DNA of 64,000 nt from an uncultured Fibrobacterota bacterium (GTDB lineage: Bacteria; Fibrobacterota; CAYVZU01). The DNA lies in the NCBI GenBank assembly GCA_964455935.1, contig CAYVZU010000004.1:3695-67694 (forward strand), written 5' to 3'. The position numbers and the translations under genes are program-made. The notes under the pieces are model-generated. The model searched no databases. It was not told the origin of the DNA and saw only the letters and a list, made by a program, of their open reading frames with translations. Shown here piece by piece: positions 3,102-52,758 of the stretch (within the stretch, counting starts at the first letter, position 1; each line of letters starts with the position of its first letter).

Positions 3102-3127
3102 AGCTCCATCCTTTCCAGTTTGGATGA

Positions 3128-9497: not shown

Positions 9498-9501
9498 GAC
9501 A

Positions 9502-10650: not shown

Positions 10651-11300
10651 CCCAGGGCCTTTTTAATCCGGACCATCCAGGCGCCCGAACGCGGCATATG
10701 CGCGAGCAGCCCCGCAAACGTCCCCACCAGGATCAGCAAAGCCCCGAGCCCAATCGCGTATACAAACAGAAGACTGGAACCATACACAAAGCTCCGGGTT
10801 GTGCCGGCATAGGCCAGGACCACGCCCAGCACCGGCGCGGTGCAAGGAGAGGCGACCAGTCCAAAGACAATTCCCATCAGGAGCACATTGGCGTACTTGC
10901 CGCCCTGCCGGTCGGCTTCCTGCAATTTCGAAAGAAATCCGGGCAAACGGATTTCGTACACACCCAGCATGCTGAGGCCCAGCAGGATGCAGATATTCGC
11001 AACAAGAAACGACACCCAGGGACTACTGCTGATCTGGCCAAACAGCGTACCCGTTCCAACGGCAATCAGGCCAAGAGCCGAATAGGTCAGCGCAATTCCA
11101 ACAACAAAAACCAGGGACAAAAGAAACGATTGCAGCCTTGAGGATTGTTTCTGGCCCGCAATGATGCCAACCGTGATGGGAATCATGGGATAGATACACG
11201 GTGTGAGGCTGGACAATACGCCTCCAAGCAGTACCATCAGGTAGGCCGTCATCTTGCCTTGTGCCAAATACATCTGCAGAGATTGAATGATTGCGTCCAT
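10590..11300 (-). CDS. ccdA: Cytochrome c-type biogenesis thiol-disulfide transporter CcdA (DsbD core)
   Basis: A 236-aa protein with six TMs and two conserved Cys (SLTPCIYPMIP and VASPCTAPVL). Confidence 0.8.
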   Translation of the reverse strand: MDAIIQSLQMYLAQGKMTAYLMVLLGGVLSSLTPCIYPMIPITVGIIAGQKQSSRLQSFLLSLVFVVGIALTYSALGLIAVGTGTLFGQISSSPWVSFLVANICILLGLSMLGVYEIRLPGFLSKLQEADRQGGKYANVLLMGIVFGLVASPCTAPVLGVVLAYAGTTRSFVYGSSLLFVYAIGLGALLILVGTFAGLLAHMPRSGAWMVRIKKALGWLMIAAGEYFLVQMGKGMF

Positions 11301-11309
11301 GGGAAACTC

Positions 11310-11789
11310 CTATTTGAGAAGCGCTTCAATCGCCGCCTCGATCTTCTTGCCTTCGTCGGGTGAATAGCCGCGGAATCGCTTGGCGATATTTCTATTCTCG
11401 TCAAGAATGATCAGCGAGGGGACGCCCTTTATGTCGTAAGGTTTTGTGGTTTCGCCCTTGGGATCCAGCAAAATCATATAACTGATCTGGGCCTTTTTCG
11501 CGAAGCCGGAAATCTTTGGGGACGGCTGCCGGTCCAGGTTGACGCCAACCACCTGAAGCCCTTGCGGTCCATATTTCTTCTGAAGGTCATTCAACGCCGG
11601 AAAGGCCTCTTTGCAGGTCTTGCACCACACAGCCCAAAAATCGAGAACAATGACTTTCGCTTTCAGGTCCTCCAAACGAACCTGATTTCCCTGCAGGTCG
11701 AATAGGCTGAATACAGGGGCCGGCGACGATGCGGTTGCATCGGCAAGAAGACCGGCGACGAACACCAATGTGGCCACGATCCGTTTCAT
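11310..11789 (-). CDS. resA: TlpA/ResA-like periplasmic thiol:disulfide oxidoreductase
   Basis: A 159-aa protein with a signal peptide and a thioredoxin fold carrying WCKTC (CxxC). Confidence 0.8.
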   Translation of the reverse strand: MKRIVATLVFVAGLLADATASSPAPVFSLFDLQGNQVRLEDLKAKVIVLDFWAVWCKTCKEAFPALNDLQKKYGPQGLQVVGVNLDRQPSPKISGFAKKAQISYMILLDPKGETTKPYDIKGVPSLIILDENRNIAKRFRGYSPDEGKKIEAAIEALLK

Positions 11790-11804
11790 GATTCCTCCTT
11801 ACTT

Positions 11805-13076
11805 CTAGAATGAGAACGCGACTCCGGCTTCGATCCAATAGGCTCGGAAGCCTTCGGAAATATCCCAGTAATTGTAATGCAAATCGCGTTCGACAATATC
11901 CGCCGTGCTCGAACGCAGGTAACGATCAAAACCGATATCAACGGTTGTCGGATACAGCGCCCAATAGGAGGACGCAGGCGGTTTGACGAAATCGCGCAGC
12001 TCAAAACTGACCTTGCCTCCGATGGTGTGAGCTGAAAATTCGCTGTGTTTGAAATCGGCGGTCATATAGGCCTGCGGGATCTCATAATAGGGCGCATAGA
12101 AAAACGCCTGGGTTTGCGCATAATACCGATAGTCCGGGCGAACGATGATGTTATCGAGAAATCGAAAATAGACCGCGATTCCCGCCGTGTGGCTTTTGAT
12201 ACCCCAACCATCTTCGTAGTAGCGGTAATCGGCCTGGATCGAAGAGCCATCCAGCAGAGGAACATACTGGTTCAGTTTCGCGACGACGGTCCCGCTTTTC
12301 TTGCTTTCGGGATAGTGCTCCTGATAAAATTGCATGACCCCGGCCCGTGGCCCGACCGACACAACGTAATACGGCCGGTCCAGATATCCGCTCTCGAATC
12401 CGTAGCCCAGAACGACGGATGCCACGGTGGTCAGCGTCAGCCCCTGTGTGAGACTGGCGGTGTAGGCAATGTTCTTGCGCCGGCCTTCTCCCAGGTAGTT
12501 CCAACTTGGATTCAGCGAGTCTGGCAAAAAGCGCTCGGGGGGATTGTATTGATCAAAATTCCGGTTATAGCGGAACCCAAGGGTTGTATTGCGTTCAAAA
12601 AGGTCCTGCGAGATCCCGGCCGAGATGGTGTAAGAACGATAGTCGCTTTCGCGGCTGTCCATGGCGGTTACGGAAATCACCGTGGGATTGTCGGAGTTGC
12701 CCCCGGATTTGAAAGCCTTCCAGAAATCGCGGGTATAGGAGAGAGTCGCGCTGTACTCCTTGCGCTGTTCACTTATGGGAGAGGCGGCCGTAATGGCATC
12801 CACGGGCAAAAGGGTTCCGCGATCTTCGCGCCGTGAAGCCGCGGTGATCGCATCCACCAGAAAACCCACGTTCAGGTTTGTGGATTCCGAGAGCTTTTTC
12901 GAAACATGGGCTGTGTTTGAGCGCACAATGCAGTTGTTGTTATCCTCATAGTACTGGAATTTGTAGGCCAGGCTATTTTCGGCTTCGATGATGCCGGCAA
13001 CCCCGAACAGAAGCGCAGCGGCGCAGCCAACCGTAACGAAGCTTCCGGCTCCCGCCCGCATTGTCAGCATCCGCAA
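11805..13076 (-). CDS. Putative outer-membrane beta-barrel protein, DUF3570-like
   Basis: A 423-aa protein with a signal peptide, an alternating amphipathic beta-strand pattern rich in Y/G/N/D, and a C-terminal ...AGVAFSF with terminal Phe (OMP signature). It lies immediately downstream of a DUF4266-like lipoprotein gene, the pairing reported for DUF3570. Confidence 0.5.
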   Translation of the reverse strand: MRMLTMRAGAGSFVTVGCAAALLFGVAGIIEAENSLAYKFQYYEDNNNCIVRSNTAHVSKKLSESTNLNVGFLVDAITAASRREDRGTLLPVDAITAASPISEQRKEYSATLSYTRDFWKAFKSGGNSDNPTVISVTAMDSRESDYRSYTISAGISQDLFERNTTLGFRYNRNFDQYNPPERFLPDSLNPSWNYLGEGRRKNIAYTASLTQGLTLTTVASVVLGYGFESGYLDRPYYVVSVGPRAGVMQFYQEHYPESKKSGTVVAKLNQYVPLLDGSSIQADYRYYEDGWGIKSHTAGIAVYFRFLDNIIVRPDYRYYAQTQAFFYAPYYEIPQAYMTADFKHSEFSAHTIGGKVSFELRDFVKPPASSYWALYPTTVDIGFDRYLRSSTADIVERDLHYNYWDISEGFRAYWIEAGVAFSF

Positions 13077-13291
13077 CCCCCGCCTGCGCCGCCGTAGCCG
13101 CCTGCGCTGCCTTCCCGTCGCGGGTAGATGTGATTCTTTAGCGCGGACTCCTGTTCGTCCTTATCGAAGTACATGATTGGGTCGCCCAGATACTGGCGTT
13201 GCCATTGCATGATCGTGAAACAACCGCTCAGCCCCAAAGCCAAGATGGTCAGGAAGAGAAAAAGGAGAGCGCGCAGGAATCTATTCTTCAT
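13064..13291 (-). CDS. Small lipoprotein, DUF4266-like
   Basis: A 75-aa protein with a lipobox (LGLSGC) and a Gly/Cys-rich C-terminus (GGAGGGCGC). It is the usual partner of DUF3570 genes. It overlaps the barrel gene start. Confidence 0.5.
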   Translation of the reverse strand: MKNRFLRALLFLFLTILALGLSGCFTIMQWQRQYLGDPIMYFDKDEQESALKNHIYPRREGSAGGYGGAGGGCGC

Positions 13292-14340
13292 TTCCAGTAC
13301 GTCTTTTTGTAAAGGGATGACGACGGGTCACCTCCACCGTGGCAGTCCACATTCGAGCAACTCTTTTCAGCCGCGTTCCAGGCAAACATCGTATCATGCC
13401 CGGGGGTTGCCGCGTTTATGAAACGATTATAGAAGGAAACGTCCTTGGCGCCATTCATATGATGGGCCGTGTTGACCAGCGGAAGAGTATCTCCGTCAGG
13501 TGTTAAAAACACGGTCTGGCCATACCGCACGCGCGGTCCGAACTGCGTGGAGTCAATTGCACTGTCGTAGGCTACGGTTTGGAAGTGGCACTCGATGCAC
13601 TGCCGAATATCGCCGGAGGAATTGCGGGAGACATGAAGGGAATGCAGCCCGGCCATGGGCTTGTAGTCATGGCACGAATTGCATCGACCCAACTGGACCG
13701 ACTCCATCCGGAAGTCCGCTTGGCCGTTGCGGTGCAATGAGTCGATCAGCGAAAATGTATCCGCGCCGTTGAAACTGAATTCATCATGAACGAGCCAGGC
13801 AGCCCGGCGGGTTGTCACAAGGGTGTTGCTGGGTCTCTGAATGTAGGTGGCAACCAACGCGGAGTCTTTTTGAACTGCCCCGGCATGACAAGCAAAGCAG
13901 TTGCCCGCGAAGGATTTGGACATGGGCAGCAGAGAATCCCATTGGCACTTTGGCGAGGGAACCGTATGGCACATAGCGCAGTGCATGGGGCTTGCGGCGG
14001 TATCAAGCCGATCATTCGCATGGAGCCTTCCTGTCCGGGGTTTTTCTTCGCCGTCGATTACATCCGAAGCATCGAAATAGACGAAGTGGTTCGAGGCCGG
14101 ATCCAATGCACTGTCAAGCTGGATTGCATCCCAATGGCAGGCCACGCATTGCGAGTGAGTCGCTCCTTGAACCAGGACGGCCGTGTCTTTGCATGACACG
14201 CCGGGATAATGATGGCACTGATCACAGGAAACCTGTTTTGGCAGAGAACCCGAAACAGGTTCGAACCGCTCAATACAGCCCGCGGCCAAGGCAACGGCCA
14301 CTATGGGAAGCAAAGCGGGTCTGGCGCATCGCCTTTTCAT
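13288..14340 (-). CDS. Multiheme cytochrome c lipoprotein (6 CxxCH plus one CX4CH motif)
   Basis: A 350-aa protein with a lipoprotein signal (LAAGC). Heme-binding motifs are CDQCH, CVACH, CAMCH, CFACH, CNSCH, CIECH and CSNVDCH. Its start overlaps the upstream gene's stop (ATGA). Confidence 0.8.
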   Translation of the reverse strand: MKRRCARPALLPIVAVALAAGCIERFEPVSGSLPKQVSCDQCHHYPGVSCKDTAVLVQGATHSQCVACHWDAIQLDSALDPASNHFVYFDASDVIDGEEKPRTGRLHANDRLDTAASPMHCAMCHTVPSPKCQWDSLLPMSKSFAGNCFACHAGAVQKDSALVATYIQRPSNTLVTTRRAAWLVHDEFSFNGADTFSLIDSLHRNGQADFRMESVQLGRCNSCHDYKPMAGLHSLHVSRNSSGDIRQCIECHFQTVAYDSAIDSTQFGPRVRYGQTVFLTPDGDTLPLVNTAHHMNGAKDVSFYNRFINAATPGHDTMFAWNAAEKSCSNVDCHGGGDPSSSLYKKTYWK

Positions 14341-15134
14341 CTCTTCATCACAAGAACGGGTTGGCGGACAAGCTGACCTTGGAATTCCGCTATGGCCACG
14401 TAGACGCCGTCCTTCAGGCCTTGGACGGGAACACTCTTTTCCGCGGAGGAGACTGATCTTTCCAGATATCGCCGAGCGATTTTCCCCTGAAGATCACAGA
14501 TTGTCAGAGCCAATGGCGCCCCAATTGCGCCGGCGGGAAGCGAGAGCGTTAATACGCCGGATTTTGCCGCAATGCGAGCCTTAAGGCTGGGTTTCCCGGG
14601 GATGGTGTTTATTACGGACGAAGTCGTATCTGTGACTGTTACCGAAATATTGGTAAGAAATGTGGACCCGCTGTTGGCCGAGGAGTCGTATCCGGTGCGG
14701 GAATGGGAATGGCCGTCGATCACGATATTGCCGCGAACCAAGGGGCCCGGCGGGTCGATTGAATTGGAGTGGTCCTCGGTCATTTCGATACAGTACCGGT
14801 AGGTCCCGTTTGCGACGCGCTGTCCGTTCTGGTTAGTCAAGTTCCAGGTTGCTGAGATAGTCCCATGAACATTACGGGTGGCACCTGTCAGGCCGTCTAC
14901 ATCCATGCTGCTTGCGGCTTTCCAGGAGACCAAGTCGTTCTTGCGTTCGGCTGCCCATATCCCGATCGTTTTCACAAACTGGCCAGACGCGTTCTGCATC
15001 CAGACCGCAACCAGGTTCTTTGGGGCCTCGCGGCCGTCGTAGGTTCTTGTTGTCGCGGTGACCCGCAGGCTCCCCGCCAAAGCGGTTGAACTCAACATGC
15101 AGAGCCCCACCCCAATCAGGCAAAAGACTTTCAT
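14337..15134 (-). CDS. Secreted DUF2271-domain protein with T9SS-type C-terminal sorting domain
   Basis: The start is trimmed to MKVFCLIG, which has a signal peptide and RBS GGGGAGGG. The DUF2271 region reads VAVWMQNASGQFVKTIGIW...VDGLTGATR. The C-terminal approximately 70 aa (ICDLQGKIARRY...GLKDGVYVAIAEF) resemble Por/T9SS sorting domains. Confidence 0.55.
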   Translation of the reverse strand: MKVFCLIGVGLCMLSSTALAGSLRVTATTRTYDGREAPKNLVAVWMQNASGQFVKTIGIWAAERKNDLVSWKAASSMDVDGLTGATRNVHGTISATWNLTNQNGQRVANGTYRYCIEMTEDHSNSIDPPGPLVRGNIVIDGHSHSRTGYDSSANSGSTFLTNISVTVTDTTSSVINTIPGKPSLKARIAAKSGVLTLSLPAGAIGAPLALTICDLQGKIARRYLERSVSSAEKSVPVQGLKDGVYVAIAEFQGQLVRQPVLVMKR

Positions 15135-15156
15135 TTTCCCTCCCCGAAATTCCGGG

Positions 15157-15546
15157 TTATACAGAGACCCGTGATAGCCGGTATTGACAATCGCCGCAAT
15201 TTTTTGAACAAAAAGGGCAGCTAATGCCGGCATCGCGCAGGAAGGCCGCCAGTTCATGGCATTTGTCGGCGCGCGCTTTGCGGACAATGCACTTGGTGCA
15301 CCCTCGGCCTTTGCCCTTCATGGCTGCAAATTCCCAGCAGGACATCTGCTGGGGCTTTTTGGAAAAGAACGGTTCGAGACTGGCCCATAGTATTCGAAAG
15401 TGCCCGCCCGCGGTTCTTTTTGCCCTTACTTTTCCGCTTCGGATCCATTTCAAAACCGTATCCGGAGTCACCGAACAACAACGGGCTGCTTGACCTGTAG
15501 TAAGCGTCCCTTTGGCCATAATGGGTTTTATGGGTTTTCCTTCCAT
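15157..15546 (-). CDS. Small excisionase/MerR-type HTH DNA-binding protein with Cys-rich C-terminal domain (putative metal/redox-sensing regulator)
   Basis: This gene is hidden in the C-terminal third of a 320-aa track ORF. The HTH_17-like segment is LTTGQAARCCSVTPDTVLKWIRSGKVRAKRTAGGHFRI. Nine or more Cys follow, including CxxC and CPFCSKNCGDC. The start is ATG 15546 (possibly leaderless, with TATAAT 8 nt upstream) or ATG 15519. It is the first gene of the cytochrome/ccs operon. Confidence 0.5.
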   Translation of the reverse strand: MEGKPIKPIMAKGTLTTGQAARCCSVTPDTVLKWIRSGKVRAKRTAGGHFRILWASLEPFFSKKPQQMSCWEFAAMKGKGRGCTKCIVRKARADKCHELAAFLRDAGISCPFCSKNCGDCQYRLSRVSV

Positions 15547-18530: not shown

Positions 18531-18560
18531 TTTACATCATTTCCTCATCTGTGCTATATT
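18531..18560 (+). promoter_or_regulatory. Putative sigma70-like promoter for the secretin operon
   Basis: TTTACA/TTACAT (-35), a 17-18 nt spacer, then TATATT (-10). It lies about 40 nt upstream of the secretin ATG, which has RBS GGCGGGAG. Confidence 0.3.
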
Positions 18561-18598: not shown

Positions 18599-20530
18599 AT
18601 GCGGCTGCTGCATTCTTGTACGCTGTTGATTGGATTGACAACAATGGTCTTTGCCGCGCCGCCGGCCGGCACGCCCGCTCCTTCCGCAAAACCTCCCAAG
18701 CCAACTCCCGTCAGCAGCAAACCCGCGACCGCTCCGGAGCCGCCTGCAAGCGTCAGCGCGGCCGTTCCGCGCATGACCTTTGATTTCAAAGACACGGACA
18801 TCCGCGATATCGCCCGTTCCATTTCCATTGCCTATGGTCTTAACATCCTGATCGACAAGGATATCACGGTCAAGGTGACCGTGCATTTGACCGACGTTCC
18901 GGTCATGGAAGGCCTGCGCACGATTCTTGAATCCAACGGCCTGGCCCTAGTTCGCGAAGGCGATCTCTATCGCATCACCAAGCCGGTGGACCGAGGCAGC
19001 GCGGCGATCGATGCCAAGCGCGACACCATCAGTTTCAATATCAGCAACGTGGAAGTCAACGACTTCATCCGCGACATTTCAAGCAAAACGGGGATCAACA
19101 TCATCGCGGAAAAGAATGTCACCGGCCGGGTTTCCGGGTCGCTGCGCAATGTGGATGTGGAAGACGGGATCCGGGCTTTGCTGGAAGCCAACGGGTTTAC
19201 GATGCAGTACCGGGGCGAAATCCTGGTGGTGGGCATGCCATCCGAGGATGCCAAACGAAGGCCCGACCGGGAGGCCCGGCGGCTCGACGTGAGAGTAAAA
19301 GACAAGAAGGTGACCCTCGATCTCAAGGGCGCGGACCTGGGCGATGTATTAAAAGAGATCGCCGACCAGGGCAAGCTCGACATGATCACCTACGGAGCGG
19401 TCCGGGGCGAGGTCAACGCCAAATTGAAGGAGATGCCCATCGAGCATGCGGTCGCTCTCCTGGTTTCGGGGACGCAATACACCTTTGCCATTCGCGAAGA
19501 CATCTTGCTCATCGGCGACCGCAATGTCACCACCCCCTCCGGCCAGGCCTTGAGCATTGCCGAACTGGTTCACGTGAAACACATCAAAGCCGAGGGCCTC
19601 CCCAACCTTCTGCCCAAGACCATTCCAACGGGAAACGTTCAAGTCATTAAGGAGCAGAATGCAGTTTTAGTGACCGGTACCACGGACATCATTGCCCAAG
19701 TCAATGAATTCATTCGGCAAATCGACATTCCAACGCCGCAGATCATGATTGAAGCGGTCATTGTCGAATATGGGCGAGACCAGGGTCGCGAAGTGGGCGT
19801 ATCGGCCAGGTCGGGCCGCGGAGCCGACAGCCTGGAAATGCTCCTTCCCAGCATTGCTTACGGGGTCGGCGCCAGAACCCTCAATCCACGGCTGCCATCG
19901 GATATTGCGGGATTTAAATTCGGGACCGTAGGATTTCTGCCGGACGATTTTGTGATTCGGCTTCACGCATTGGAGCGCGACAAGCGCGCCAAAATTTTGG
20001 CGCAACCGCGCATTGCCACTCTTAACGGCAACAAGGCCTCCATCCATGTCGGCACAACGAGCTATTTCCGCCTGGCCGGCGGCACAACGACCGACCCCAT
20101 CACTCGTTTCCAAACCATCCAGTCCGGGATTACGCTCAACATTACGCCCTGGATTTCCAAAAGCGGGCAGGTCACGGCCGAAATCAGCCCCGAGGTCTCC
20201 AATACCACCGGCATCAACGAGGAAGGATTCCCCGATATTTCCGTGCGCAATGTCTCCACCACGGTGCGGCTCAACGACGGCGAGACGATTATCCTGGGAG
20301 GACTGATTCGCTCCGAGGACAAGAGCACGATCGAGAAAGTCCCCATCCTGGGAGACATTCCTCTGTTGGGATGGCTGTTCCGGTCCAAGATCGCGGCGAA
20401 ATCATCCAGTGAGCTGGCCATTTACATCACCCCTCACATACTGAATAAGGAAGACATTGTGGATATTGATAAAGAGCTGGAACAATTCAAGACACGATCG
20501 AATTCCGGCAAAGTTCCCGAACTCCGCTAG
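18599..20530 (+). CDS. Secretin (GspD/PilQ family) of a type II secretion / type IV pilus-like system
   Basis: A 643-aa protein with a signal peptide and a Pro/Ala-rich linker. It has N0/STN-like domains (FDFKDTDIRDIARSISIAYGLNILID...) and a C-terminal secretin domain (ILGGLIRSEDKSTIEKVPILGDIPLLGWLFRS). Confidence 0.8.
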   Translation: MRLLHSCTLLIGLTTMVFAAPPAGTPAPSAKPPKPTPVSSKPATAPEPPASVSAAVPRMTFDFKDTDIRDIARSISIAYGLNILIDKDITVKVTVHLTDVPVMEGLRTILESNGLALVREGDLYRITKPVDRGSAAIDAKRDTISFNISNVEVNDFIRDISSKTGINIIAEKNVTGRVSGSLRNVDVEDGIRALLEANGFTMQYRGEILVVGMPSEDAKRRPDREARRLDVRVKDKKVTLDLKGADLGDVLKEIADQGKLDMITYGAVRGEVNAKLKEMPIEHAVALLVSGTQYTFAIREDILLIGDRNVTTPSGQALSIAELVHVKHIKAEGLPNLLPKTIPTGNVQVIKEQNAVLVTGTTDIIAQVNEFIRQIDIPTPQIMIEAVIVEYGRDQGREVGVSARSGRGADSLEMLLPSIAYGVGARTLNPRLPSDIAGFKFGTVGFLPDDFVIRLHALERDKRAKILAQPRIATLNGNKASIHVGTTSYFRLAGGTTTDPITRFQTIQSGITLNITPWISKSGQVTAEISPEVSNTTGINEEGFPDISVRNVSTTVRLNDGETIILGGLIRSEDKSTIEKVPILGDIPLLGWLFRSKIAAKSSSELAIYITPHILNKEDIVDIDKELEQFKTRSNSGKVPELR

Positions 20531-20545
20531 CCTCTTTCCGAATCT

Positions 20546-21736
20546 ATGCTCGAAGTCCTTGATCCTGGAAAACGCACGGTCCTCTTTGACGACGTCCTGT
20601 TCTTTCACCGTCCCCGCCAGCCCCAGGACGCAGACCCCATCGCCTACCTGGAGGCGGAGATCGCGGGACTTCTGGGAGCTCAGGAAAGCCTGTCGGATGT
20701 CCTGTACCGATATCGGGAAACCGTCGACGGCTACCTGATCGGCCTGGCCCGGCGCAGCGCGATTCAGGGTCGCAGGCCCGATCCTCTTGTGGTCTGCCGT
20801 ATCCCTCACGCGGTCGCATTATGGCAACGGTTCGAGCAGATCCAGCCGCAGGCCGCTCCCATGGCTTTGCTTTATGTGCGCGATTTCGACCACCACTATA
20901 TTTTGACGGGCGATCGAACCGGGCTGTGCCGCGTGGCCAAGCTCAAGCCCACCCACCGCCTGGGCTATGATGTGTATTCGGCCGTTGAACGGGCTTGCCA
21001 GCTTCGGCCCGACCTGCGCGAAAACAAGCGACTGTATTGCGCGGGCGAAATTCCGGAATTCACCCGCGCGGCCCTGCTCGAACGCCATGTGGAAATCGTT
21101 CAGATCGTTCTTCCCAAGCGCCAGCAACTCGATCCGGCCCTGCTGCAGGAATGGGATTTCCGCCTGCCTCGGGAGGTCGAGGCGCAGATGCGATTTCACG
21201 AGGTGGTCAAAACGATACGGGTCGCCGCCATTTCGGCCGGTGTGATTCTGTCGGTCATCGCGATCCTCTTTGCCATGGAACGCGGCCTGGCCTGGCAGTC
21301 CGGAAAGAGCCGCCTGGTATGGCAAAGTCTCCAGAGCTCCTTGCGTGAGATGAATTTTCTGCGTACGCAGAACATGAACCAGATTTCCGAGCTCGCCATG
21401 GGCGTCCAGCTTTCCGGCATCCGGACAGGTCACGCCGCCGTGCTGCAGGTGCTGGCCGCCACAAGGCCGGCGCCGGTTCGCCTCGAACAGCTCACGCTTG
21501 CTCCATACCGGCAACGCGTTGCAGGCGGCGATTCGACTCCGGTGGTGGTCTACCGTCTTGAACTCAAAGGCCTTTGCGGGGCCGCCGGCCCGATCAGCGC
21601 ATGGATGGCCGCGCTCTCCGCGTCACCGCAGCTCGCGGGCGTCAAACTGATATCGGTGGAGCGCCGCGGAGAGGAACACGCATTCCGCATGGAATGCGAT
21701 GTGGCTGGTTTGGACCCAAAGGCGCGGGGACAATGA
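20546..21736 (+). CDS. GspL-like inner-membrane assembly protein (cytoplasmic domain, single TM, periplasmic domain)
   Basis: A 396-aa protein with one TM (VAAISAGVILSVIAILFAM) near residue 235, then a coiled-coil and a periplasmic domain. Topology, size and its position before a GspM/PilO-like gene match GspL. The call rests on architecture only. Confidence 0.35.
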   Translation: MLEVLDPGKRTVLFDDVLFFHRPRQPQDADPIAYLEAEIAGLLGAQESLSDVLYRYRETVDGYLIGLARRSAIQGRRPDPLVVCRIPHAVALWQRFEQIQPQAAPMALLYVRDFDHHYILTGDRTGLCRVAKLKPTHRLGYDVYSAVERACQLRPDLRENKRLYCAGEIPEFTRAALLERHVEIVQIVLPKRQQLDPALLQEWDFRLPREVEAQMRFHEVVKTIRVAAISAGVILSVIAILFAMERGLAWQSGKSRLVWQSLQSSLREMNFLRTQNMNQISELAMGVQLSGIRTGHAAVLQVLAATRPAPVRLEQLTLAPYRQRVAGGDSTPVVVYRLELKGLCGAAGPISAWMAALSASPQLAGVKLISVERRGEEHAFRMECDVAGLDPKARGQ

Positions 21737-21737
21737 A

Positions 21738-22643
21738 ATGGTGAGTGCGCGCACATACCGCCTGCTCCGGATCCTGATCCCGCTTTTTCTTCTTGTTCTG
21801 GCCCGCGGCTTCATTGGGAAAACCGTGGAGGAGGTTCGAGACGCGTACAGCCTTCTGCAATTCGAGCGCCATCGAATCGAAAACTCGGGTGTGCGCACGC
21901 GCGGACTCCCGGAACTCAAGGCCGACTTTGAAGCCTTGGCCCGCAAGAAGGCCCAGGTTTCCTCGTCGCTATTCGCGGTCAGCAGTGAAGCTTCGCTTTA
22001 CGATCTGCTGTTCCTGAAAGCCGAAGAGGCCGGCGCTATTATCATATCGGTTTCCTCGCGCCCCAAGCGCCGCTGCGCGGGGTACGACGAGCTGCCTCTT
22101 CAGTTGCGCGCCCGGGGCGCCTACCATGATCTGGCCTTGCTGGTAAACAGGATCGAAACATCGAGCCGACTGCTCCACATCGGGGAGTTGCGCATGTCGG
22201 TGGACGGCCGGGGCGAACTGACGGCGGATATGGACGTGACCGCGTACCTGCAATCCGCGGATTCCACGAAGACCGCCGGCCCGCGACGGTCCTCGCCGGC
22301 CCCGGCCTACCTCGCGGCACTCCAGAAAGCGCTGGCCGTGCGCACCATGAAGCCGGCATTCTCCTATGCGGCAACCGGAGGCGATCCGTTCTCGGCCCTG
22401 CCGGTCCGCAGATCCGGCGCAAAAGCAACGGGTATGGCCTCCGAGGCCCCCAATGTCAAGCTCAAGGGAATCCTCTGGAAGCAACCACCGCTTGCGGTTT
22501 TGGAATCCCTCGATGGTCAGACCCTGATCCTCCGTGAAGGCGATGAAATCGGCGGCTACAAGGTGCAATCGATTCTGCGCTCGGCCGTAAATCTGGTGGG
22601 GCCCAAGGGGACCCATGTTCTGGAACAGTATCAGCAGAAATAG
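21738..22643 (+). CDS. GspM/PilO-like protein fused to a PilP/GspC-HR-like C-terminal beta domain
   Basis: The start MVSARTYRLLRILIPLFLLVLA is an N-terminal TM. A PilO/GspM-like periplasmic fold follows. The C-terminus (KLKGILWKQPPLAVLESLDGQTLILREGDEIGGYKVQSI) resembles the PilP / GspC HR domain. It has a 4-nt overlap with the upstream gene. Confidence 0.45.
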   Translation: MVSARTYRLLRILIPLFLLVLARGFIGKTVEEVRDAYSLLQFERHRIENSGVRTRGLPELKADFEALARKKAQVSSSLFAVSSEASLYDLLFLKAEEAGAIIISVSSRPKRRCAGYDELPLQLRARGAYHDLALLVNRIETSSRLLHIGELRMSVDGRGELTADMDVTAYLQSADSTKTAGPRRSSPAPAYLAALQKALAVRTMKPAFSYAATGGDPFSALPVRRSGAKATGMASEAPNVKLKGILWKQPPLAVLESLDGQTLILREGDEIGGYKVQSILRSAVNLVGPKGTHVLEQYQQK

Positions 22644-22733
22644 CATGCCGGTCGGGAACCCACGATATGAAAACTATGCTTTGCTTTCCGACCGCTGAAG
22701 CTCGGCGATTCCTTGGCCGCTAACCCTCTTTTT

Positions 22734-24077
22734 ATGCTCTTTCGCACGCGTTCGAACGAATCCGGTTCCGCCATGGTACTCGCGATTGGGGTGGGAACCA
22801 TCGTTCTGCTGCTTGTATTTGGTTGGGCCGCTTTTTCGGTGCGACAGACCCGTTCGGGCTTGCACGATGAAAGCGAGCTGCGCGCCCGCTATGCCGCCGA
22901 ATCCGTGATCAGCAAATCCGTGTATGCTCTAATGGCCGCCCAAGCCGGTGTGCCCTTCGTGGATACCATTAAAATCGCGGGCGATTCTGTTTTGGAGCAG
23001 ATGATTGACTACTCGGATTCGGTCCATTCAAGCTCCGCCTCGGCAATGCTGGCCCATAAAGGGCCTTTTCTTCGCATCAGAGCCACGGGCCGCTCCAAAC
23101 AAAACCAGTGCATTGTCGAAGCCCAGTTTGGCCGCGAACTCTCAGCGGAGTTCCGCTATGCCCTGATCCTCACCGATGCGCGGCCCTTGAAGATCAACAA
23201 CGGGCTTGTCCGGGGCGACATCCAGGCCCCTTTCCCGCCGGCCGGCCAATTCGAGGGCAAATACCAGAAGGGGGCTTCTTGGCCAAATGTGGATTTCGCA
23301 CCCTTTCTGAATGTGATGGGAAGATTTGGCAACCGAATCAGGGCCCCGCAGCCGGGCGACAGCATTGTGGCCGGGCCCAAGGCTTACTCGCGAAAAAATC
23401 CTGTCCCGCTCAAACAGAACGCCGTGTTGTTTGTGGATGGGCCAATGCTGATCGACAATCCGCCGCCCTCCCCCGAAATGGTTCTGGAGGGACCGGCGAC
23501 CCTTATCGTCACCCGGGATCTTCAAATCTCCGGAAATGTGCGCCTGGACAATCTGGAAATTCTGGTCCGTGGACGGGTAAACTGCTTTGATCAGGCCCGG
23601 TTTCGCAACGTCACGATCTGCTCCCAAGGCACCATCTACTTCGACGATCAGGTGCGCTTCTGGGGGAGCCTGTATGCGGGCGAAAGCATCATTCTCAACA
23701 ACCAGGCATATGCCGAATCGCCCACACTGGCCTTCATTGCAGGGGCGGGAAAGCCGGCCCGCAGCTTCTTCCTGGGACAGGAAGCGCGGTTTGAAGGTGT
23801 AATGGTCTGCAAGGATAACCGGATCCCTTCAGGCATCGCAAAGACCGCGCTCTTCACCGGCGTTTTATACACCCTGGGCCCCCTCGCGCTGGAGGGCACG
23901 GTCCACGGATGCGTGGCCGCACGGTCTTTAGTCAACGACTTCGCGCCCGGACAGAATGCTCTCTGGAACGGTCGGATCATGCGCAACCAATTATCGCCTC
24001 ATTTCGTTTTGCCGGTCACCTTTGGAAAGCCCGGCCAAGATTACAAATTGATGAAGTGGACCGAGGCGCGCCAATGA
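22734..24077 (+). CDS. GspK/PilX-like minor pseudopilin-type protein (PilX_N-like hydrophobic N-terminus, beta-helix-like body)
   Basis: The N-terminus (RSNESGSAMVLAIGVGTIVLLLVFGWAAF) resembles PilX_N/GspK and lacks a conserved Glu5. The body is repetitive and beta-rich. The stop overlaps the next pseudopilin start (ATGA). The start is uncertain (22713 TTG or 22734 ATG). Confidence 0.4.
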   Translation: MLFRTRSNESGSAMVLAIGVGTIVLLLVFGWAAFSVRQTRSGLHDESELRARYAAESVISKSVYALMAAQAGVPFVDTIKIAGDSVLEQMIDYSDSVHSSSASAMLAHKGPFLRIRATGRSKQNQCIVEAQFGRELSAEFRYALILTDARPLKINNGLVRGDIQAPFPPAGQFEGKYQKGASWPNVDFAPFLNVMGRFGNRIRAPQPGDSIVAGPKAYSRKNPVPLKQNAVLFVDGPMLIDNPPPSPEMVLEGPATLIVTRDLQISGNVRLDNLEILVRGRVNCFDQARFRNVTICSQGTIYFDDQVRFWGSLYAGESIILNNQAYAESPTLAFIAGAGKPARSFFLGQEARFEGVMVCKDNRIPSGIAKTALFTGVLYTLGPLALEGTVHGCVAARSLVNDFAPGQNALWNGRIMRNQLSPHFVLPVTFGKPGQDYKLMKWTEARQ

Positions 24078-24454
24078 AGAAGTCGCCTGGATTTACGCTG
24101 ATCGAGGTCGTGGTTGCCGTGGTTGTTTTTGCCCTCATGATCACACCCGCAATCGGGGTGCTCTATGCCGAAGGCAAGCTGCAGCGCAAATACCAGGAAA
24201 AAAGCCGGGCCATGCTGATTGCCAAGTCCGAGATCGAACGATGGAAAGCCTGGCCCGGCGACTTGAAGGAGTTCGAGCGTCCGGTGGTCAGCAATGGCCG
24301 AACCTGGCATGTGACTCTTTCCGTAGAGCCCAGCGAAGAAGCTCTACGCATCGGCCGGCGCATCATTCGCCCGGAATTCATCACGGTATCCGTCGTAAAC
24401 GAGAACGGGAACGCCCTGGCGGAGTTTCGGGTCATGCGGGAGCCGTATCGATGA
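24074..24454 (+). CDS. Pseudopilin (prepilin-type N-terminal cleavage/methylation domain)
   Basis: A 126-aa protein. MKKSPGFTLIEVVVAVVVF is a class III signal with G|FTLIE. Confidence 0.7.
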   Translation: MKKSPGFTLIEVVVAVVVFALMITPAIGVLYAEGKLQRKYQEKSRAMLIAKSEIERWKAWPGDLKEFERPVVSNGRTWHVTLSVEPSEEALRIGRRIIRPEFITVSVVNENGNALAEFRVMREPYR

Positions 24455-25059
24455 AGAACATATGCGGGACCGCAAAGCAGACACCGCCTGCAGATTTCCG
24501 GCCACGGAGCATCATTCTGCGGCGGCTGTATTTCCGCCGCGGATTCGCCCTGATCGAATTGCTGGTGGCCCTCTCCCTTCTGGGGCTGGTGAGCGTTATG
24601 GTGTTTTCCTTTCACCAATTTACGCAGAGGTACGTTTTTTCCCGGCAGAAGAGCGCCCTTGCCTTTGAACAATCGCAGGCACTGCTGCGCAGCGCAAGTC
24701 GCAACATCCGCCTCAGTCGCGCCACTCTCTTGCTTGCGCCGCAGCAATGGGATTTCGTCCGCGCCGACGGCGAGACCTGTTCATACTCGTTCGGAGACAA
24801 TGTCCTTCGGTTTGACTCCACGGTAGTTCTGCGCGACAGCTCCGTCACAATCAGCTTCACGGGATTTGGCCAGGACAGCCTGCTCGATCTCAACCGCGAT
24901 CAAATGCTGGACTTCAAGGAAATGGATCTGGATGCCGACGGAAAACTCGAACCTCCCGAGACCGGCCGGATCGAACGGATCCGGGTGACAATCATGCCCA
25001 AAGCCAAAGGCGAGGACTTCATTCTGTTGAGTGAAGAAGCAATCCGCAATCGGATGTAA
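24451..25059 (+). CDS. Pseudopilin (prepilin-type N-terminal domain), GspH/J-like
   Basis: A 202-aa protein. RRGFALIELLVALSLLGLV is a class III signal-like segment with Glu5. It has ATGA overlap with the upstream pseudopilin. Confidence 0.65.
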   Translation: MKNICGTAKQTPPADFRPRSIILRRLYFRRGFALIELLVALSLLGLVSVMVFSFHQFTQRYVFSRQKSALAFEQSQALLRSASRNIRLSRATLLLAPQQWDFVRADGETCSYSFGDNVLRFDSTVVLRDSSVTISFTGFGQDSLLDLNRDQMLDFKEMDLDADGKLEPPETGRIERIRVTIMPKAKGEDFILLSEEAIRNRM

Positions 25060-25150: not shown

Positions 25151-25400
25151 GCCTGGAACCCGCGTAATTCGACCAATGGCGGGGCAGCCTGGGAAACCCG
25201 GGCATCCGGCACATATCAGGATTTGCGCTCGGTTTGTTTTGCGAATGCGCAGAACTGATGGGTCGCCGGCGACAACGGAGTAATTCTGGCAACATCAAAT
25301 GGCGGCGCGACCTGGATTGCTCGATGCGACCAATGGCTGGATTGTCGGCGACGCTGGAACCGTTCTAAAAGTTCAAAAGCAAGCGGAAGTCGCGGATAAA
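25151..25400 (+). pseudogene. Remnant of a BNR/Ycf48-like repeat protein gene (internal stop and frameshift)
   Basis: One frame reads STNGGAAWETRASGTYQDLRSVCFANAQN*WVAGDNGVILATSNGGATWIAR, with TGA where the repeat Gly is expected. A +2 frameshift then gives TNGWIVGDAGTVLKVQK. Both parts match the DGG-TW...GWxVGDxGTIL repeat of Ycf48/BNR proteins. There is no start and no N-terminal part. Confidence 0.4.
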
Positions 25401-25456: not shown

Positions 25457-27804
<2,348 letters not shown>

Positions 27805-47853: not shown

Positions 47854-48028
47854 TTTGCACCTCACTTGCCCCATTTGAACGATTAACCCTCGTCCTCAGA
47901 TTCTTGCGGGTCCCTATTAATGAAATCTACAAAGAATGAGGGAAATAGTCAAAGCGATCCACCGCAATGGCGAAATATTTTTTTGAGCTGAGCGCGCAGC
48001 GGAGGCGGATGCTGATGCGTCTTGGCGG

Positions 48029-49717
48029 CTATTCGAACAGCACAACCCTCAGAAGCTCTTCGATCGAGGTGATCCCTTCCCGCACCTTAGCCAAGCCGTG
48101 ATCGGATAGCTTCATCATGCCGCCGGCCAGAGCGGCTTCCCGAATGCGATGCTCGGGTTCATTGCGCGTAATCAGGTCGCGCACAGTCGCGTCAATTTTT
48201 AAAAATTCGAAAACGCCGGTACGGCCTTTAAAGCCCGTGTTATTGCAGTTCTTGCAGCCCCGGCCGTAAAAGGACGGCGGCACGGGCGTTTCGCCCAGCA
48301 CCATCTTGTAGCGAAAAAGGACCTCCTCGCAGGGATGATACTCTTCTTTGCACTCTGGACAGATCACGCGCACCAGGCGCTGGGCCAGCACGCCCAGCAC
48401 GGCCGAGGCAATCAGGAAAGGCGCAATGCCCAGATCGCGAAGCCGCGTGATCGCCGAGATAGAGTCGTTCGTGTGCAGGGTCGAAAAGACCAGGTGTCCT
48501 GTCTGCGACGATTGCAGAGCGATCTGGGCGGTTTCGGGATCGCGGATCTCGCCCACCAGAATGACATCGGGGTCCTGGCGCAGAATCGAACGCAGCGTGT
48601 CTGCGAATGTGAGCCCGGCCTTGTCGTTGATCTGAACCTGGTTGATGCCGGGTAGCTTGTATTCGATCGGGTCCTCGATGGTCGTGATGTTGATGGCCTT
48701 GGCCTTGATTCGGTTGAGGCAGGCGAAAATGGTGGACGATTTGCCCGATCCAGTGGGGCCTGTTACAAACAGCATTCCCTGGGGTTTGTTGATCAGCTCG
48801 TTGAGCCATTCGAGATCGCGCCCCTCCAGGCCCAGCGGCTCCAACTGAAGCAGCGCCTCGGTATGGCGCAGAATGCGGATCACCGTCTTTTCCCCATGGT
48901 GGGTGGGCAGCGTCGAGACGCGCAAATCCACTTCTTCACCGGCCACCATGCGTTTGATCCGGCCATCCTGGGGAATCCGCTTCTCGGCGATATCCAGATT
49001 GGCCAGGATCTTGACCCGCGACGTCAGCGGGCTCTGCATCCATTCGGGCAGGTCCATCATGTCGAGCAGCATCCCATCAATCCGGTAGCGGATGTGGAGC
49101 GAGTTCTCATGGGGCTCCAGATGAATGTCGCTGGCACCCTTGGCCACCGCCTCATCCAGAACCAGATTGACCATGCGCACTACCGGCTCGGCCTCCGTTT
49201 CCCGGCGCAGTTTCTCGACCTGCGAGGCGCCAGGATCAGCCCGTCCGAATTCCTTCAAGTTCCGCGCAATGCTGTTGGCGTCTTCGCTCAGCCGGCTTAC
49301 CGTGCCATAGCAGCGTTCGATGGAACCCAGAATATCGGTCTCGGTCGCGATGCGGCGGTTTACGCGGCATTGGGTGAGAAACTCGATTTCGGCCACCAGT
49401 TCCATATCGTGGGGGTCGGCCACCGCCAGATCGAGCAGGGCCGATTCGCGCAAAAGAGGAAAACACAACCGCTTTTCGGCGATGCGGCGCGGGATGATCT
49501 TGTCGGGCGCCTCGACCACAAAATCCGCGATGCGCGCGAACGGGAGGGCGTATTGCTCGGCCAGGGCGCGGTAGAGGTCTTCTTCCGAAATTCTCCCGGA
49601 CAGCACCAGGACGCGGCCTATGGGCCGTCGCGTCCGGGCCGCCTCTTCCGCGGCCGATGCAATCTCGGCCTCGGACAGGCTCAACTCGCGGCTCAGGATT
49701 TTTCCGATTTTTTCCAT
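48029..49717 (-). CDS. gspE: Type II secretion / type IV pilus assembly ATPase GspE/PilB
   Basis: A T2SSE_N domain is followed by Walker A (GPTGSGKSS), Asp/His boxes and a tetracysteine motif (CPECK...CKNC). Confidence 0.85.
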   Translation of the reverse strand: MEKIGKILSRELSLSEAEIASAAEEAARTRRPIGRVLVLSGRISEEDLYRALAEQYALPFARIADFVVEAPDKIIPRRIAEKRLCFPLLRESALLDLAVADPHDMELVAEIEFLTQCRVNRRIATETDILGSIERCYGTVSRLSEDANSIARNLKEFGRADPGASQVEKLRRETEAEPVVRMVNLVLDEAVAKGASDIHLEPHENSLHIRYRIDGMLLDMMDLPEWMQSPLTSRVKILANLDIAEKRIPQDGRIKRMVAGEEVDLRVSTLPTHHGEKTVIRILRHTEALLQLEPLGLEGRDLEWLNELINKPQGMLFVTGPTGSGKSSTIFACLNRIKAKAINITTIEDPIEYKLPGINQVQINDKAGLTFADTLRSILRQDPDVILVGEIRDPETAQIALQSSQTGHLVFSTLHTNDSISAITRLRDLGIAPFLIASAVLGVLAQRLVRVICPECKEEYHPCEEVLFRYKMVLGETPVPPSFYGRGCKNCNNTGFKGRTGVFEFLKIDATVRDLITRNEPEHRIREAALAGGMMKLSDHGLAKVREGITSIEELLRVVLFE

Positions 49718-49720
49718 GAC

Positions 49721-50920
49721 TCAGCCAAGGCCCTGTGTGATCTCGAACATGGGAAGATACATGGCGATTAAAACCGCGGCAACCGCAATGCCCATCAGCA
49801 CGATCAATACCGGCTCGATCAGCGAAGTGACCGTACCCAGGGCCGTGTCAACCTCGACTTCATAGTAATCGGAAATTCGGGTCAGCATCTCGGCCAATCC
49901 GCCTGTGCGCTCTCCCACCGAGACCATCTGCACGACCATGGCCGGAAACAGGCCGGCCCGCGCCAGTCGTGACGAGATGGTGTTTCCGGCCTTGACAGCT
50001 TCGAGAGTTTGGAGCAAGGCGGCTTCCACCGCGCCATTGCCCGCGGTTTCGGCCGTGATCTCGAGGGCTGCGGGCAGCGGAACGCCGCCTGTGAGAAGCG
50101 CGCCCAGCGTGCGCGAGAATCGCGCAATGGCGCTTTTGCGGGCCAGGTCGCCCAGAACCGGCAAGCGCAGAAGTAGCGTGTCAAGCTGGAGCCGAAACGC
50201 CGGGCTGCGCCGGTACGATAGAACAAACCAGATCAGGATTCCGGCAAACGATGCCAATGCAGGCATCCAGAACCGGCGCACAATTTCGCTTGCCTGGATC
50301 ACAAGCCGGGTGGAGGCGGGCAGGGCCGCACCCAGATCCGTGAGCATTGATGCGAAGGTTGGAACGACAAAGGTCATTAGCGCGGCCAGCGCGCCCGCGG
50401 TCACTAGCAGAACGACGGCCGGATAGGCCAGCGCGCCGCGAATGCGGCGCTGCAGGTTGGCCTGGCGCTCCTGGTAGTCGGCCAGCCGTTTGAGAATGTC
50501 GCCCAACATTCCACCGGCTTCTCCGGCTCGAACCATGGCGCAGTAGAGCCGGTTGAATATGCGGGGGTGCTGCGAAAGTGCTTCGGCCAGCGCGCCGCCG
50601 CCCTGTACATCCACCGAGACCTTGGCCACCGCCTCGCGAAGAGGGCGGTTTTCGACCTGTCCGGATATTGTGTCGAGACAGGCCACCATGGGCAGCCCGG
50701 CTGCGGTCATAGCGGAAAACTGCCGGGTAAACCGCGACAGCTCGCGAATCCCCACGCCGCTTGAGAGATTCAGAGTTAAAGTAGATACAGGCGCGATCTT
50801 CTCCAAACGAATTCGCCGACGCTGAAGAAGCTCCATGGCTTCCTCCCGCGAACGCGCTTCGATCTCGCCCTGCACCGCCTTGCCGTCGAAAAGAATCCCG
50901 GAGTATCTGAACTTGGCCAT
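49721..50920 (-). CDS. gspF: Type II secretion / type IV pilus platform protein GspF/PilC
   Basis: A 400-aa protein of two T2SSF repeats with three TMs. The start is trimmed to MAKFRYSGI. It ends 3 nt upstream of gspE. Confidence 0.8.
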   Translation of the reverse strand: MAKFRYSGILFDGKAVQGEIEARSREEAMELLQRRRIRLEKIAPVSTLTLNLSSGVGIRELSRFTRQFSAMTAAGLPMVACLDTISGQVENRPLREAVAKVSVDVQGGGALAEALSQHPRIFNRLYCAMVRAGEAGGMLGDILKRLADYQERQANLQRRIRGALAYPAVVLLVTAGALAALMTFVVPTFASMLTDLGAALPASTRLVIQASEIVRRFWMPALASFAGILIWFVLSYRRSPAFRLQLDTLLLRLPVLGDLARKSAIARFSRTLGALLTGGVPLPAALEITAETAGNGAVEAALLQTLEAVKAGNTISSRLARAGLFPAMVVQMVSVGERTGGLAEMLTRISDYYEVEVDTALGTVTSLIEPVLIVLMGIAVAAVLIAMYLPMFEITQGLG

Positions 50921-51211
50921 ATTCAGGAGATCCCTTTTGATTGATGAAAAGTAAAGTATTAGATTGGGGCGCGTATTTTCAATCACGCCGGCAGAATGGA
51001 TATTTGATCAACTGGTAAAATTTGTTGCCGCACAAGTTCGGGCTTGCTGTGTAGATTGGAGGAAAATACGCTTTGAAACCCTCACAAGCGATATGGGCAA
51101 ATCGCGGTCCGGCCCTTTGCAGCAAATGGCCTCTTAACCAAATGGGTTCGCGAAGGCGGAATAAAACAGAAGGGAAAAAGCCACTGGGCAATTATTGCCA
51201 ACGATGCATTT

Positions 51212-52738: not shown

Positions 52739-52758
52739 AATTGATTTTCCTACCTGTT

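Follow-up and report, generated by a model that had tools for sequence, protein, structure and literature searches.

A putative type IVa pilus-derived filament system with a type II secretion-like fused scaffold, encoded at a split locus in an uncultured Fibrobacterota bacterium

Introduction

What kind of machine is encoded by a gene cluster that carries parts of both a type II secretion system (T2SS) and a type IV pilus (T4P), and where is its motor? The question is raised by positions 18599-25059 (forward strand) of a 64-kb stretch of contig CAYVZU010000004.1 from an uncultured Fibrobacterota bacterium, the whole of which we refer to as the window. Six co-oriented, intact open reading frames (ORFs) stand here in the order secretin, a GspL-like protein (L-like), a PilO/GspM-like domain fused to a PilP/GspC-HR-like domain (the M-P fusion), a large tip minor pilin (K-like) and two smaller minor pilins (pp1 and pp2). 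The original prediction, made from the DNA letters alone, described this set as a T2SS/T4P hybrid that lacks its ATPase, platform, major pilin and prepilin peptidase. Our analysis bears out the hybrid character, which is carried by the GspL-type fusion, the PilO/GspM-HR fusion, the tip pilin at the K position and the I/J-like minor pilins, and places the motor elsewhere in the window. Our preferred reading is of a type IV filament machine, derived from the type IVa pilus (T4aP), whose fused scaffold resembles that of T2SS and which falls outside both canonical T2SS and canonical T4aP.

Results

As had been stated, no gene for GspE, GspF, GspG or GspO lies inside 18599-25059, and the sole ATPase/platform (E/F) pair of the window (48029-50986) is located 23 kb away on the opposite strand, among genes for secreted proteins. 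The claim that the cluster lacks an ATPase and a platform did not survive comparison with related loci. The six-gene order is common to at least six other loci, and in L006/L007, a 14-kb Joint Genome Institute (JGI) contig (P0011), L010, a 123-kb JGI contig (P0034) and L012 (a Chitinispirillaceae metagenome-assembled genome, MAG) it continues directly after pp2 into pp3, a small major pilin of 135-157 aa, and then into the platform gene. In L006/L007, L010 and L012 the ATPase gene follows the platform gene directly, in convergent orientation; on the two JGI contigs pilin and platform genes are adjacent and the ATPase gene is off the contig end or not nearby. The window ATPase shares 70-73% identity with the cluster-adjacent ATPases of these relatives and the window platform 51-56% with those of L006 and L010, while the six cluster proteins share 32-57% with their counterparts. 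Because the distant pair is orthologous to the cluster-adjacent pair of relatives, we regard it as the cognate motor and platform; the motor has therefore not been lost, and the locus is split after its sixth gene. The reading of a missing motor arose because one half of a split locus was viewed. Within the distant pair, the two genes are co-directional and 3 nt apart, and their junction is repeated in three independent assemblies.

The same module, in a locus from a different lineage (L013), also stops after pp2 and is followed by unrelated genes. As the window and L013 both break here, the pp2/pp3 boundary is a recurrent break point, and a break at this place agrees with two transcription units, one for secretin, L-like, M-P fusion, K-like and the I/J-like pilins (D-L-MP-K-I-J) and one for major pilin and platform with or without the ATPase (G-F(+E)). 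An uncultured Fibrobacteres MAG (L003) carries the first four genes and then reaches its contig end. Scans of genome contigs and of metagenome contigs yielded 1 and 2 loci, respectively, and all named sources of the L-like and K-like families are Chitinispirillaceae or Fibrobacteres MAGs. In L012, a 247-aa CxxCxxCC (putative Zn/Fe-chelating) protein is encoded between platform and ATPase (12533-13276, reverse strand); it is absent from the other loci.

Independent gene calls recover the six genes from two shorter groundwater-metagenome assemblies of this organism. Their lengths are close to those of orthologues and conserved motifs are kept, so that with all six genes intact a reading as degenerate paralogs is unsupported. 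Tight packing had been described as several ATGA overlaps; these are found at two junctions only, K-like/pp1 (24074) and pp1/pp2 (24451), whereas secretin and L-like are separated by 15 nt, L-like and M-P fusion meet as TGA-a-ATG, and about 90 nt separate M-P fusion from K-like. Coordinates are collected in Table 1.

Table 1. Features of the cluster, its distant motor genes and its borders, in window coordinates
Feature	Position	Strand	Basis and remarks
Candidate sigma-70-like promoter, TTTACA-18-TATATT with TG	18531..18560	+	Consensus scan, 10/12 matches, weak evidence; 39 nt upstream of the secretin start
Secretin, 643 aa	18599..20530	+	Pfam Secretin 5.5e-47, STN, type_II_gspD_N0, Secretin_N
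L-like, GspL-type bitopic scaffold, 396 aa	20546..21736	+	Transmembrane prediction, AlphaFold2 (AF2) model, Foldseek
M-P fusion, 301 aa	21738..22643	+	Pfam, NCBIfam and PDB profile matches
K-like, large tip minor pilin, 447 aa	22734..24077	+	AF2 model, Foldseek
pp1, GspI/PilV-like minor pilin, 126 aa	24074..24454	+	N_methyl 1.6e-7, TIGR01707 gspI 3.5e-8, XpsI 1e-6
pp2, GspH/J-like minor pilin, 202 aa	24451..25059	+	N_methyl 1.9e-5, gspH 1.4e-4, EF-hand_5 0.0055
Frameshifted, stop-interrupted Ycf48/BNR-repeat gene fragment	25166-25382	+	PSII_BNR 1.5e-7; in the spacer directly after pp2
Perfect 16-bp inverted repeat, 3-nt loop	25404..25438		Read from sequence; between the convergent pilin operon and gdhA
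gdhA	25457-26833	-	Convergent to the cluster; downstream border
Assembly ATPase (E), probably PilB-type	48029..49717	-	T2SSE 2.3e-132, MshEN 5.6e-15
Platform protein GspF/PilC (F)	49721..50986	-	T2SSF 2.9e-63

The L-like protein is predicted to consist of a small actin-like cytoplasmic domain (residues ~1-205), a transmembrane stretch continued by a long helix (208-306, with a single transmembrane segment at ~226-248) and a periplasmic ferredoxin-like PilN/GspL domain (312-386), and it carries an invariant WDFRL motif. The window protein has no Pfam or NCBIfam family above threshold and no GspL match by sequence, PDB profile searches included. Its AF2 model was built from an alignment of 10 family members (pLDDT 82.8). 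In Foldseek, the cytoplasmic domain matches PilM (1e-5) and the cytoplasmic GspL structures 4pht_Y, 5tkw and 1yf5; target-normalised TM-scores are 0.40-0.44 with GspL and lower, 0.27-0.36, with PilM. For the C-terminal domain the matches are the periplasmic parts of PilN (4bhq), XcpY (6ghu/5n7l) and PulL (5hl8), and an orthologue reaches the Pfam PilN threshold (7.5e-7). Since the cytoplasmic part matches PilM and GspL, the C-terminus PilN and GspL, and an orthologue passes for PilN, the modelled protein is a GspL-type fused PilM/PilN: it has the bitopic actin-like plus ferredoxin-like topology of GspL, and PilM and PilN fit equally well. The family is small, with 10 members detected by exhaustive search among 1.8 billion cluster representatives; a word-indexed protein search gave 3-4 close homologues each of the L-like protein and the M-P fusion. 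Among the best matches to the cytoplasmic domain is also BT_3980 of Bacteroides thetaiotaomicron (PDB 3hrg; target-normalised TM-score 0.43), a protein with an actin-like ATPase fold and unknown function, which could itself be a GspL/PilM-type scaffold, so far overlooked, in a filament system of Bacteroidetes.

The M-P fusion is laid out as an N-terminal transmembrane segment, a PilO/GspM ferredoxin-like domain (~48-183), a linker and a PilP/GspC-HR-like beta domain (~207-295). Its N-terminal part matches PilO (3.6e-7), T2SSM_b, GspM_XpsM (2.6e-7) and PilO in the PDB (1e-5). C-terminal matches are weak: PilP at 0.02 (TIGR03021 at 0.007-0.02 across the family), GspC at 0.039 and, for the family profile, Myxococcus xanthus PilP in the PDB (3jc8_Pa) at 0.006-0.02. 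Among the eight orthologues, PilO and T2SSM_b are matched by all and T2SSC by five at E <= 0.05, the best T2SSC match being 9.9e-6 (L010); a C-terminal block, LKGILWKxPPLA..LDG...I.R.GD, is invariant. Because these weak matches all cover one stretch of the protein and come from a single homologous superfamily, we accept the protein as a predicted fusion of a PilO/GspM domain to a PilP/GspC-HR-like domain. No PDZ or coiled-coil domain was detected by profile searches of the window protein and its orthologues. Across 20546-22643 as a whole, neither profile nor fold searches reassigned the genes to unrelated families.

The secretin opens with a signal peptide and a Pro-rich linker, followed by three N0/STN-like domains (~58-130, 139-214 and 231-308), one N1 domain (323-381) and the secretin domain (457-615). 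Self-alignment of the N0 repeats gives z = 19.9 and 13.1 against shuffles. A Pfam search found no AMIN domain. Hidden Markov model (HMM) scores for PilQ (254.7 bits) and GspD (236.8 bits) amount to a tie with both below their cutoffs, PilQ and GspD are equally good matches in the PDB, and identity to orthologues is 54-57%. We know of no described secretin with three N0 domains. A partial literature search likewise found no description of a triple-N0 secretin and no report of a PilO-PilP or GspM-GspC fusion; solenoid tip pilins and fused L-type scaffolds, by comparison, are already known.

K-like translation more likely starts at ATG 22734 than at TTG 22713, judging from independent gene calls. 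The family N-terminus reads G-S-A followed by ~22 hydrophobic residues without Glu5, and a hydrophobic N-terminus lacking Glu5 is the pattern of GspK/PilX-type pilins. No Pfam or NCBIfam family matches the protein and PDB sequence and profile searches gave no useful match, apart from a weak match of the family profile to an ice-binding-protein (IBP)-type antifreeze protein (0.066). The AF2 model (pLDDT 85.7, predicted TM-score (pTM) 0.79, from 18 homologues) consists of a pilin helix (12-70), a four-strand sheet (90-135), an IBP-like beta-solenoid (~145-416, ~270 residues) and a final strand (437-446). Its best Foldseek match in the PDB is Thermus ComZ (6qvi, 1.8e-5), at ~10% sequence identity and low TM-scores, followed by ice-binding-protein solenoids.

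Thermus ComZ has a GspK-like pilin domain with an FfIBP-like solenoid inserted ahead of the last strand, and pairs with a GspI-like pilin encoded beside it (PMC6561018); a 2026 preprint reports that all cyanobacterial PilX homologues share this ComZ-like combination of pilin and solenoid. In both papers, solenoid pilins are assigned to the tips of T4P in organisms without PilY1. The architecture of our model fits these descriptions, and the K-like protein is, on its predicted fold, a ComZ/cyanobacterial-PilX-type tip pilin with an ice-binding-protein-like solenoid. The claim of a GspK/PilX-like pilin thus holds for its position and for the missing Glu5 but not for GspK itself: a beta-solenoid stands where GspK has its alpha-helical insertion domain, and two further minor pilins only accompany it. 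Among the 20 homologues found, a part of them from Chitinispirillaceae MAGs, some carry the JGI name bactofilin, which we rejected on account of the N-terminal pilin helix and sheet and of the operon context; the label mirrors the solenoid part alone.

An orthologue of pp1 matches T2SSI at 3.8e-4. In pp2 the leader is basic and unusually long (29 residues, against 9-20 in orthologues), and an acidic double loop, DSLLDxNxD...ELDxxxDGxxxxxE (residues ~140-170), resembles an EF-hand or dockerin Ca2+ site, its acidic residues being invariant across five orthologues (including L006, L010, L012 and L013). Beyond pp1 and pp2, the 64 kb contain no further GFxxxE prepilin motif.

The ATPase has a Walker A motif at residue 320 and two CxxC motifs. 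HMM scores are 585 bits for PilB (TIGR02538; cutoff 675) and 582 bits for GspE. The best PDB matches are the Geobacter and Myxococcus PilB proteins (466 and 436 bits), which align over residues 3-560, whereas GspE structures align from about residue 155 only. Residues 3-55 hold two tandem 24-residue MshEN-type motifs, and the NCBIfam c-di-GMP motif domain reaches 35 of the 38 bits that its cutoff demands; these motifs suggest that cyclic di-GMP (c-di-GMP) might control filament assembly. The platform protein scores 376.9 bits with PilC and 374 bits with GspF. Its longest ORF starts at GTG 50986, yet the conserved N-terminus, MAKFRYSG..., has its first codon at ATG 50920 and the protein collection does not contain the longer version, so that ATG 50920 is probably the true start.

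With a GspE/PilB ATPase, a GspF/PilC platform and two N_methyl class III pilins, the system belongs to the type IV filament superfamily. Within it, T2SS and T4aP each have defining features that were tested and found absent here, which is why we place the machine outside both canonical classes. No equivalog model of NCBIfam reaches its curated cutoff, and the T2SS cutoffs are missed by all three core proteins (GspE 582.5 vs 630, GspF 374 vs 424, GspD 236.8 vs 351). In place of a separate GspM and a separate GspC (transmembrane segment, HR and PDZ or coiled coil), both domains are found in one protein; in place of separate PilM, PilN, PilO and PilP with PilQ last, there are two fusions (M to N and O to P) and a secretin that comes first. 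The original prediction had singled out the secretin-first order and the M-P/C fusion as departures from both canonical layouts, and our analysis agrees on both. What draws the system toward T4P is the full-length PilB match, the MshEN-type motifs, the PilA-leaning major pilin of relatives (PilA score above GspG score, GspG at 32-43.5 against a cutoff of 88.9, no T2SSG Pfam domain) and the solenoid tip pilin, a type known from reports on pilus systems only.

Discussion

We propose, with a probability of roughly three in four, that the cluster encodes the conduit, alignment and priming module of one T4aP-derived type IV filament machine of a Chitinispirillia-like (Fibrobacterota) lineage. In this machine the secretin would form the outer-membrane channel. 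The reduced actin-like cytoplasmic domain of the L-like protein might dock the PilB-type ATPase and the platform, while its periplasmic domain could pair with the PilO/GspM domain of the fusion, whose HR domain would in turn reach one of the secretin N0 domains. Two polypeptides would thereby replace PilM, PilN, PilO and PilP, or GspL, GspM and GspC. The solenoid pilin without Glu5, together with the GspI-like and GspH/J-like pilins, would form a K-I-J-type priming complex that starts and caps a filament of a pp3-type major pilin encoded elsewhere, the pilins being cleaved by a prepilin peptidase that would also be encoded elsewhere. As for the output, the balance tips slightly toward a surface or periplasm-spanning pilus whose solenoid tip serves as a plug, an adhesin or a receptor for polysaccharide or DNA.

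Several observations weigh against this proposal. The 64-kb window holds no major pilin, no counterpart or remnant of pp3, no prepilin peptidase and no PilT, and completeness of the machine in this genome is therefore unproven; the original prediction was right that major pilin and prepilin peptidase are missing, within the scope of these 64 kb. In related loci, too, no prepilin peptidase was found, nor a pilT gene in these loci plus up to 10 kb either side. The docking of the L-like protein to the motor and the contact between HR domain and secretin are drawn by analogy. HMM scores of ATPase, platform and secretin tie between T4aP and T2SS models, and a number of traits are T2SS-like: the fused GspL-type scaffold, the GspM and HR matches, a secretin operon that includes the K-I-J trio, no AMIN domains and, in relatives, a layout as a single locus. 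Finally, the junction between pp2 and gdhA is seen on one 71-kb contig alone, and an independent contig (L001) ends in this very spacer, inside the Ycf48/BNR fragment.

The main alternative is a protein-secretion machine, a T2SS analogue with an origin from T4aP within the Fibrobacteres-Chlorobi-Bacteroidetes (FCB) group, like the Cytophaga/Flavobacterium T2SS, in which a short periplasmic endopilus pushes folded glycoside hydrolases through the secretin. To the GspL-type scaffold, the GspM_XpsM, T2SSC, GspI and GspH matches, the K-I-J-like genes in the secretin operon and the contiguous loci of relatives, this explanation can add a secretin with four periplasmic ring domains and no AMIN, the position of the E/F pair among genes for secreted carbohydrate-active enzymes (CAZymes), and a precedent in the Cytophaga system (PMC5553014), which groups with T4aP (PMC6668835). 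We nevertheless consider it unlikely. The ATPase N-terminus fits PilB/MshE and not GspE, the major pilin of relatives lacks T2SSG and leans toward PilA, the tip pilin is of the ComZ/PilX solenoid type found in pili and not of the GspK alpha-domain type, and the PDZ or coiled-coil part by which GspC recognises substrates is missing. The neighbouring CAZymes, moreover, suggest another export route. The genes flanking E and F (46123-47874 and 51212-55092, reverse strand) include those for a CBM96 protein, for one with fn3 and for a third that resembles acetyl-xylan esterases and ends in a FlgD_ig domain, and a DUF2271 protein (14337-15287, reverse strand) has weak Por_Secre_tail and FlgD_ig matches; such FlgD_ig/Por-type C-termini suggest sorting of the type IX secretion system (T9SS) kind and not export via a pilus-like machine.

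Compared with T2SS (Gsp C-M), the filament system we propose shares the GspL architecture, the GspM_XpsM/T2SSM_b matches, a GspC HR-like domain, GspI/GspH-like pseudopilins, a K-position pilin without Glu5 and, in relatives, a contiguous locus. It differs in its order, D-L-M/C-K-I-J-G-F(E), in the M-HR fusion without PDZ or coiled coil, in the beta-solenoid that replaces the GspK alpha-domain, in a pilin without T2SSG and in the PilB-like ATPase N-terminus. The T2SSs of Bacteroidetes (Cytophaga hutchinsonii CHU_3191-3201; Flavobacterium johnsoniae Fjoh_0611-0622) belong to the same FCB superphylum. These always group with T4aP and have been proposed to be an independent secretion derivative (Denise et al., PMC6668835), and the Cytophaga system, with very divergent L, M and C and a non-canonical order, is needed for cellulose use (PMC5553014). 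Shared with them are highly divergent L/M/C proteins detected by remote homology and a non-proteobacterial gene order, and the L-like model also matches Bacteroides BT_3980, mentioned above. In the published order, which is what was compared, E, O, G and F lie beside D and the cluster includes a prepilin peptidase (PMC5553014), unlike here; no M-C fusion or solenoid tip pilin has been reported there. The present system may be related to them.

A more far-reaching idea, which we consider improbable, is that this Chitinispirillia-type cluster is an independent move of the FCB lineage from T4aP toward a T2SS-like single-locus machine, in which a PilM-N plus PilO-HR scaffold tethers the inner-membrane platform directly to a triple-N0 secretin, and which exports or presents polysaccharide-degrading proteins in hosts without a canonical T2SS. 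If true, T4aP would have been converted to secretion a second time, independently, and the machine would be a minimal alignment complex made by nature.

Among pili, T4aP of the Thermus and cyanobacterial style share with the proposed filament system an ATPase, here probably PilB-type, with an MshEN N-terminus, PilO, PilP-like HR and PilN-like domains, a secretin, and a solenoid PilX/ComZ tip pilin followed by GspI/PilV- and GspJ/H-like pilins; their genes, too, can be spread over several loci. The differences here are a fused, GspL-sized PilM-PilN with a reduced actin-like domain, a fused PilO-HR, a secretin that comes first and not last, has three N0 domains and no AMIN, and no PilT or PilY1 seen. 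With the ComZ-PilA2 and cyanobacterial PilX systems in particular, the triangular IBP-like solenoid between penultimate and last strands and the adjacent GspI-like partner are held in common, whereas the solenoid here is shorter (~270 vs ~380 residues), identity is as low as noted above, and the K-like gene shares an operon with secretin and scaffold in place of a pilin-only locus.

The likeness to ComZ raises the question of whether the filament could be a competence pilus of the Thermus ComZ/PilA2 kind, with the solenoid tip pilin as its DNA receptor. Among solved structures, the one nearest to the K-like protein is indeed that of a competence pilin, and the pairing of ComZ with an adjacently encoded GspI-like pilin is matched here. 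Yet the likeness is one of fold, at low sequence identity and low TM-scores, and no comEA, comEC or dprA gene is found near any locus examined. Cyanobacterial solenoid PilX, besides, is used in both motility and competence pili (2026 preprint), so that the fold does not specify DNA binding. We judge DNA uptake a decidedly improbable function.

One further pilus was compared, that of the MSH type (mshI-Q). Its MshI is a fused PilM/N-like protein. The MSH pilus also has in common with the present system an MshEN-type ATPase N-terminus and, as in our relatives, a single locus without prepilin peptidase (MSH: PMC6668835); order differs, and its accessory genes (mshM, N, F, O, P and Q) are unmatched. 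We rejected this assignment on the secretin, which scores 254/237 bits with PilQ/GspD vs 130 bits with the MshL model.

A reading of the cluster as a remnant, orphaned and in decay, or as a chimera of the assembly, with the E/F/G separation a mis-join or a loss of function, is very improbable: the frameshifted fragment directly after pp2, the independent contig end in that spacer and the absence of a major pilin gene from the window would suit it, whereas the six ORFs and those of E and F are intact, keep conserved motifs and have normal lengths, L013 from another lineage ends the same module at the same point, the F-E junction recurs in three assemblies and GC content is uniform over the junction.

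Upstream of the module stands a cbiM-cbiQ-cbiO transporter operon, with a 266-nt spacer after the cbiO-like gene that holds the candidate promoter. Downstream, the inverted repeat before gdhA is probably the terminator that closes the pilin module, and the Ycf48/BNR fragment may be the scar of a rearrangement that parted the cluster from the pilin/platform module. GC content is even across the cluster and its downstream junction; with this uniformity and with housekeeping genes (cbiMQO and gdhA) on both flanks, a horizontal island was rejected.

Elsewhere in the window, genes at 402-6792 (reverse strand) for a molybdopterin oxidoreductase with a NuoG-like N-terminus, a NuoE-like 2Fe-2S protein and a 1046-aa NuoF-like protein fused to a pyridine-nucleotide-disulphide oxidoreductase look, by their domains, like an electron-bifurcating formate dehydrogenase or a hydrogenase-type complex. 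A cytochrome c biogenesis system II set (8697-14340, reverse strand; CcsA, ResB-like, DsbD and thioredoxin-like) adjoins genes for a DUF3570 outer-membrane-type protein and a multihaem cytochrome c7-like protein.

TXSScan and similar automated annotators would probably label the filament system generic or incomplete. Our analysis presents it as a compact, well-conserved member of the type IV filament superfamily, whose host phylum degrades polysaccharides and has been little studied. The PilO-HR fusion suggests that one polypeptide can bear both the platform-pairing and the secretin-binding domain, which would make it a simple natural construct for structures of the alignment complex. The filament system joins a fused scaffold in T2SS style to an ATPase and a tip pilin in T4P style, and this mixture is relevant to the divergence between secretion systems and pili, which Denise et al. 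(PMC6668835) raised as a question for the T2SS of Bacteroidetes.

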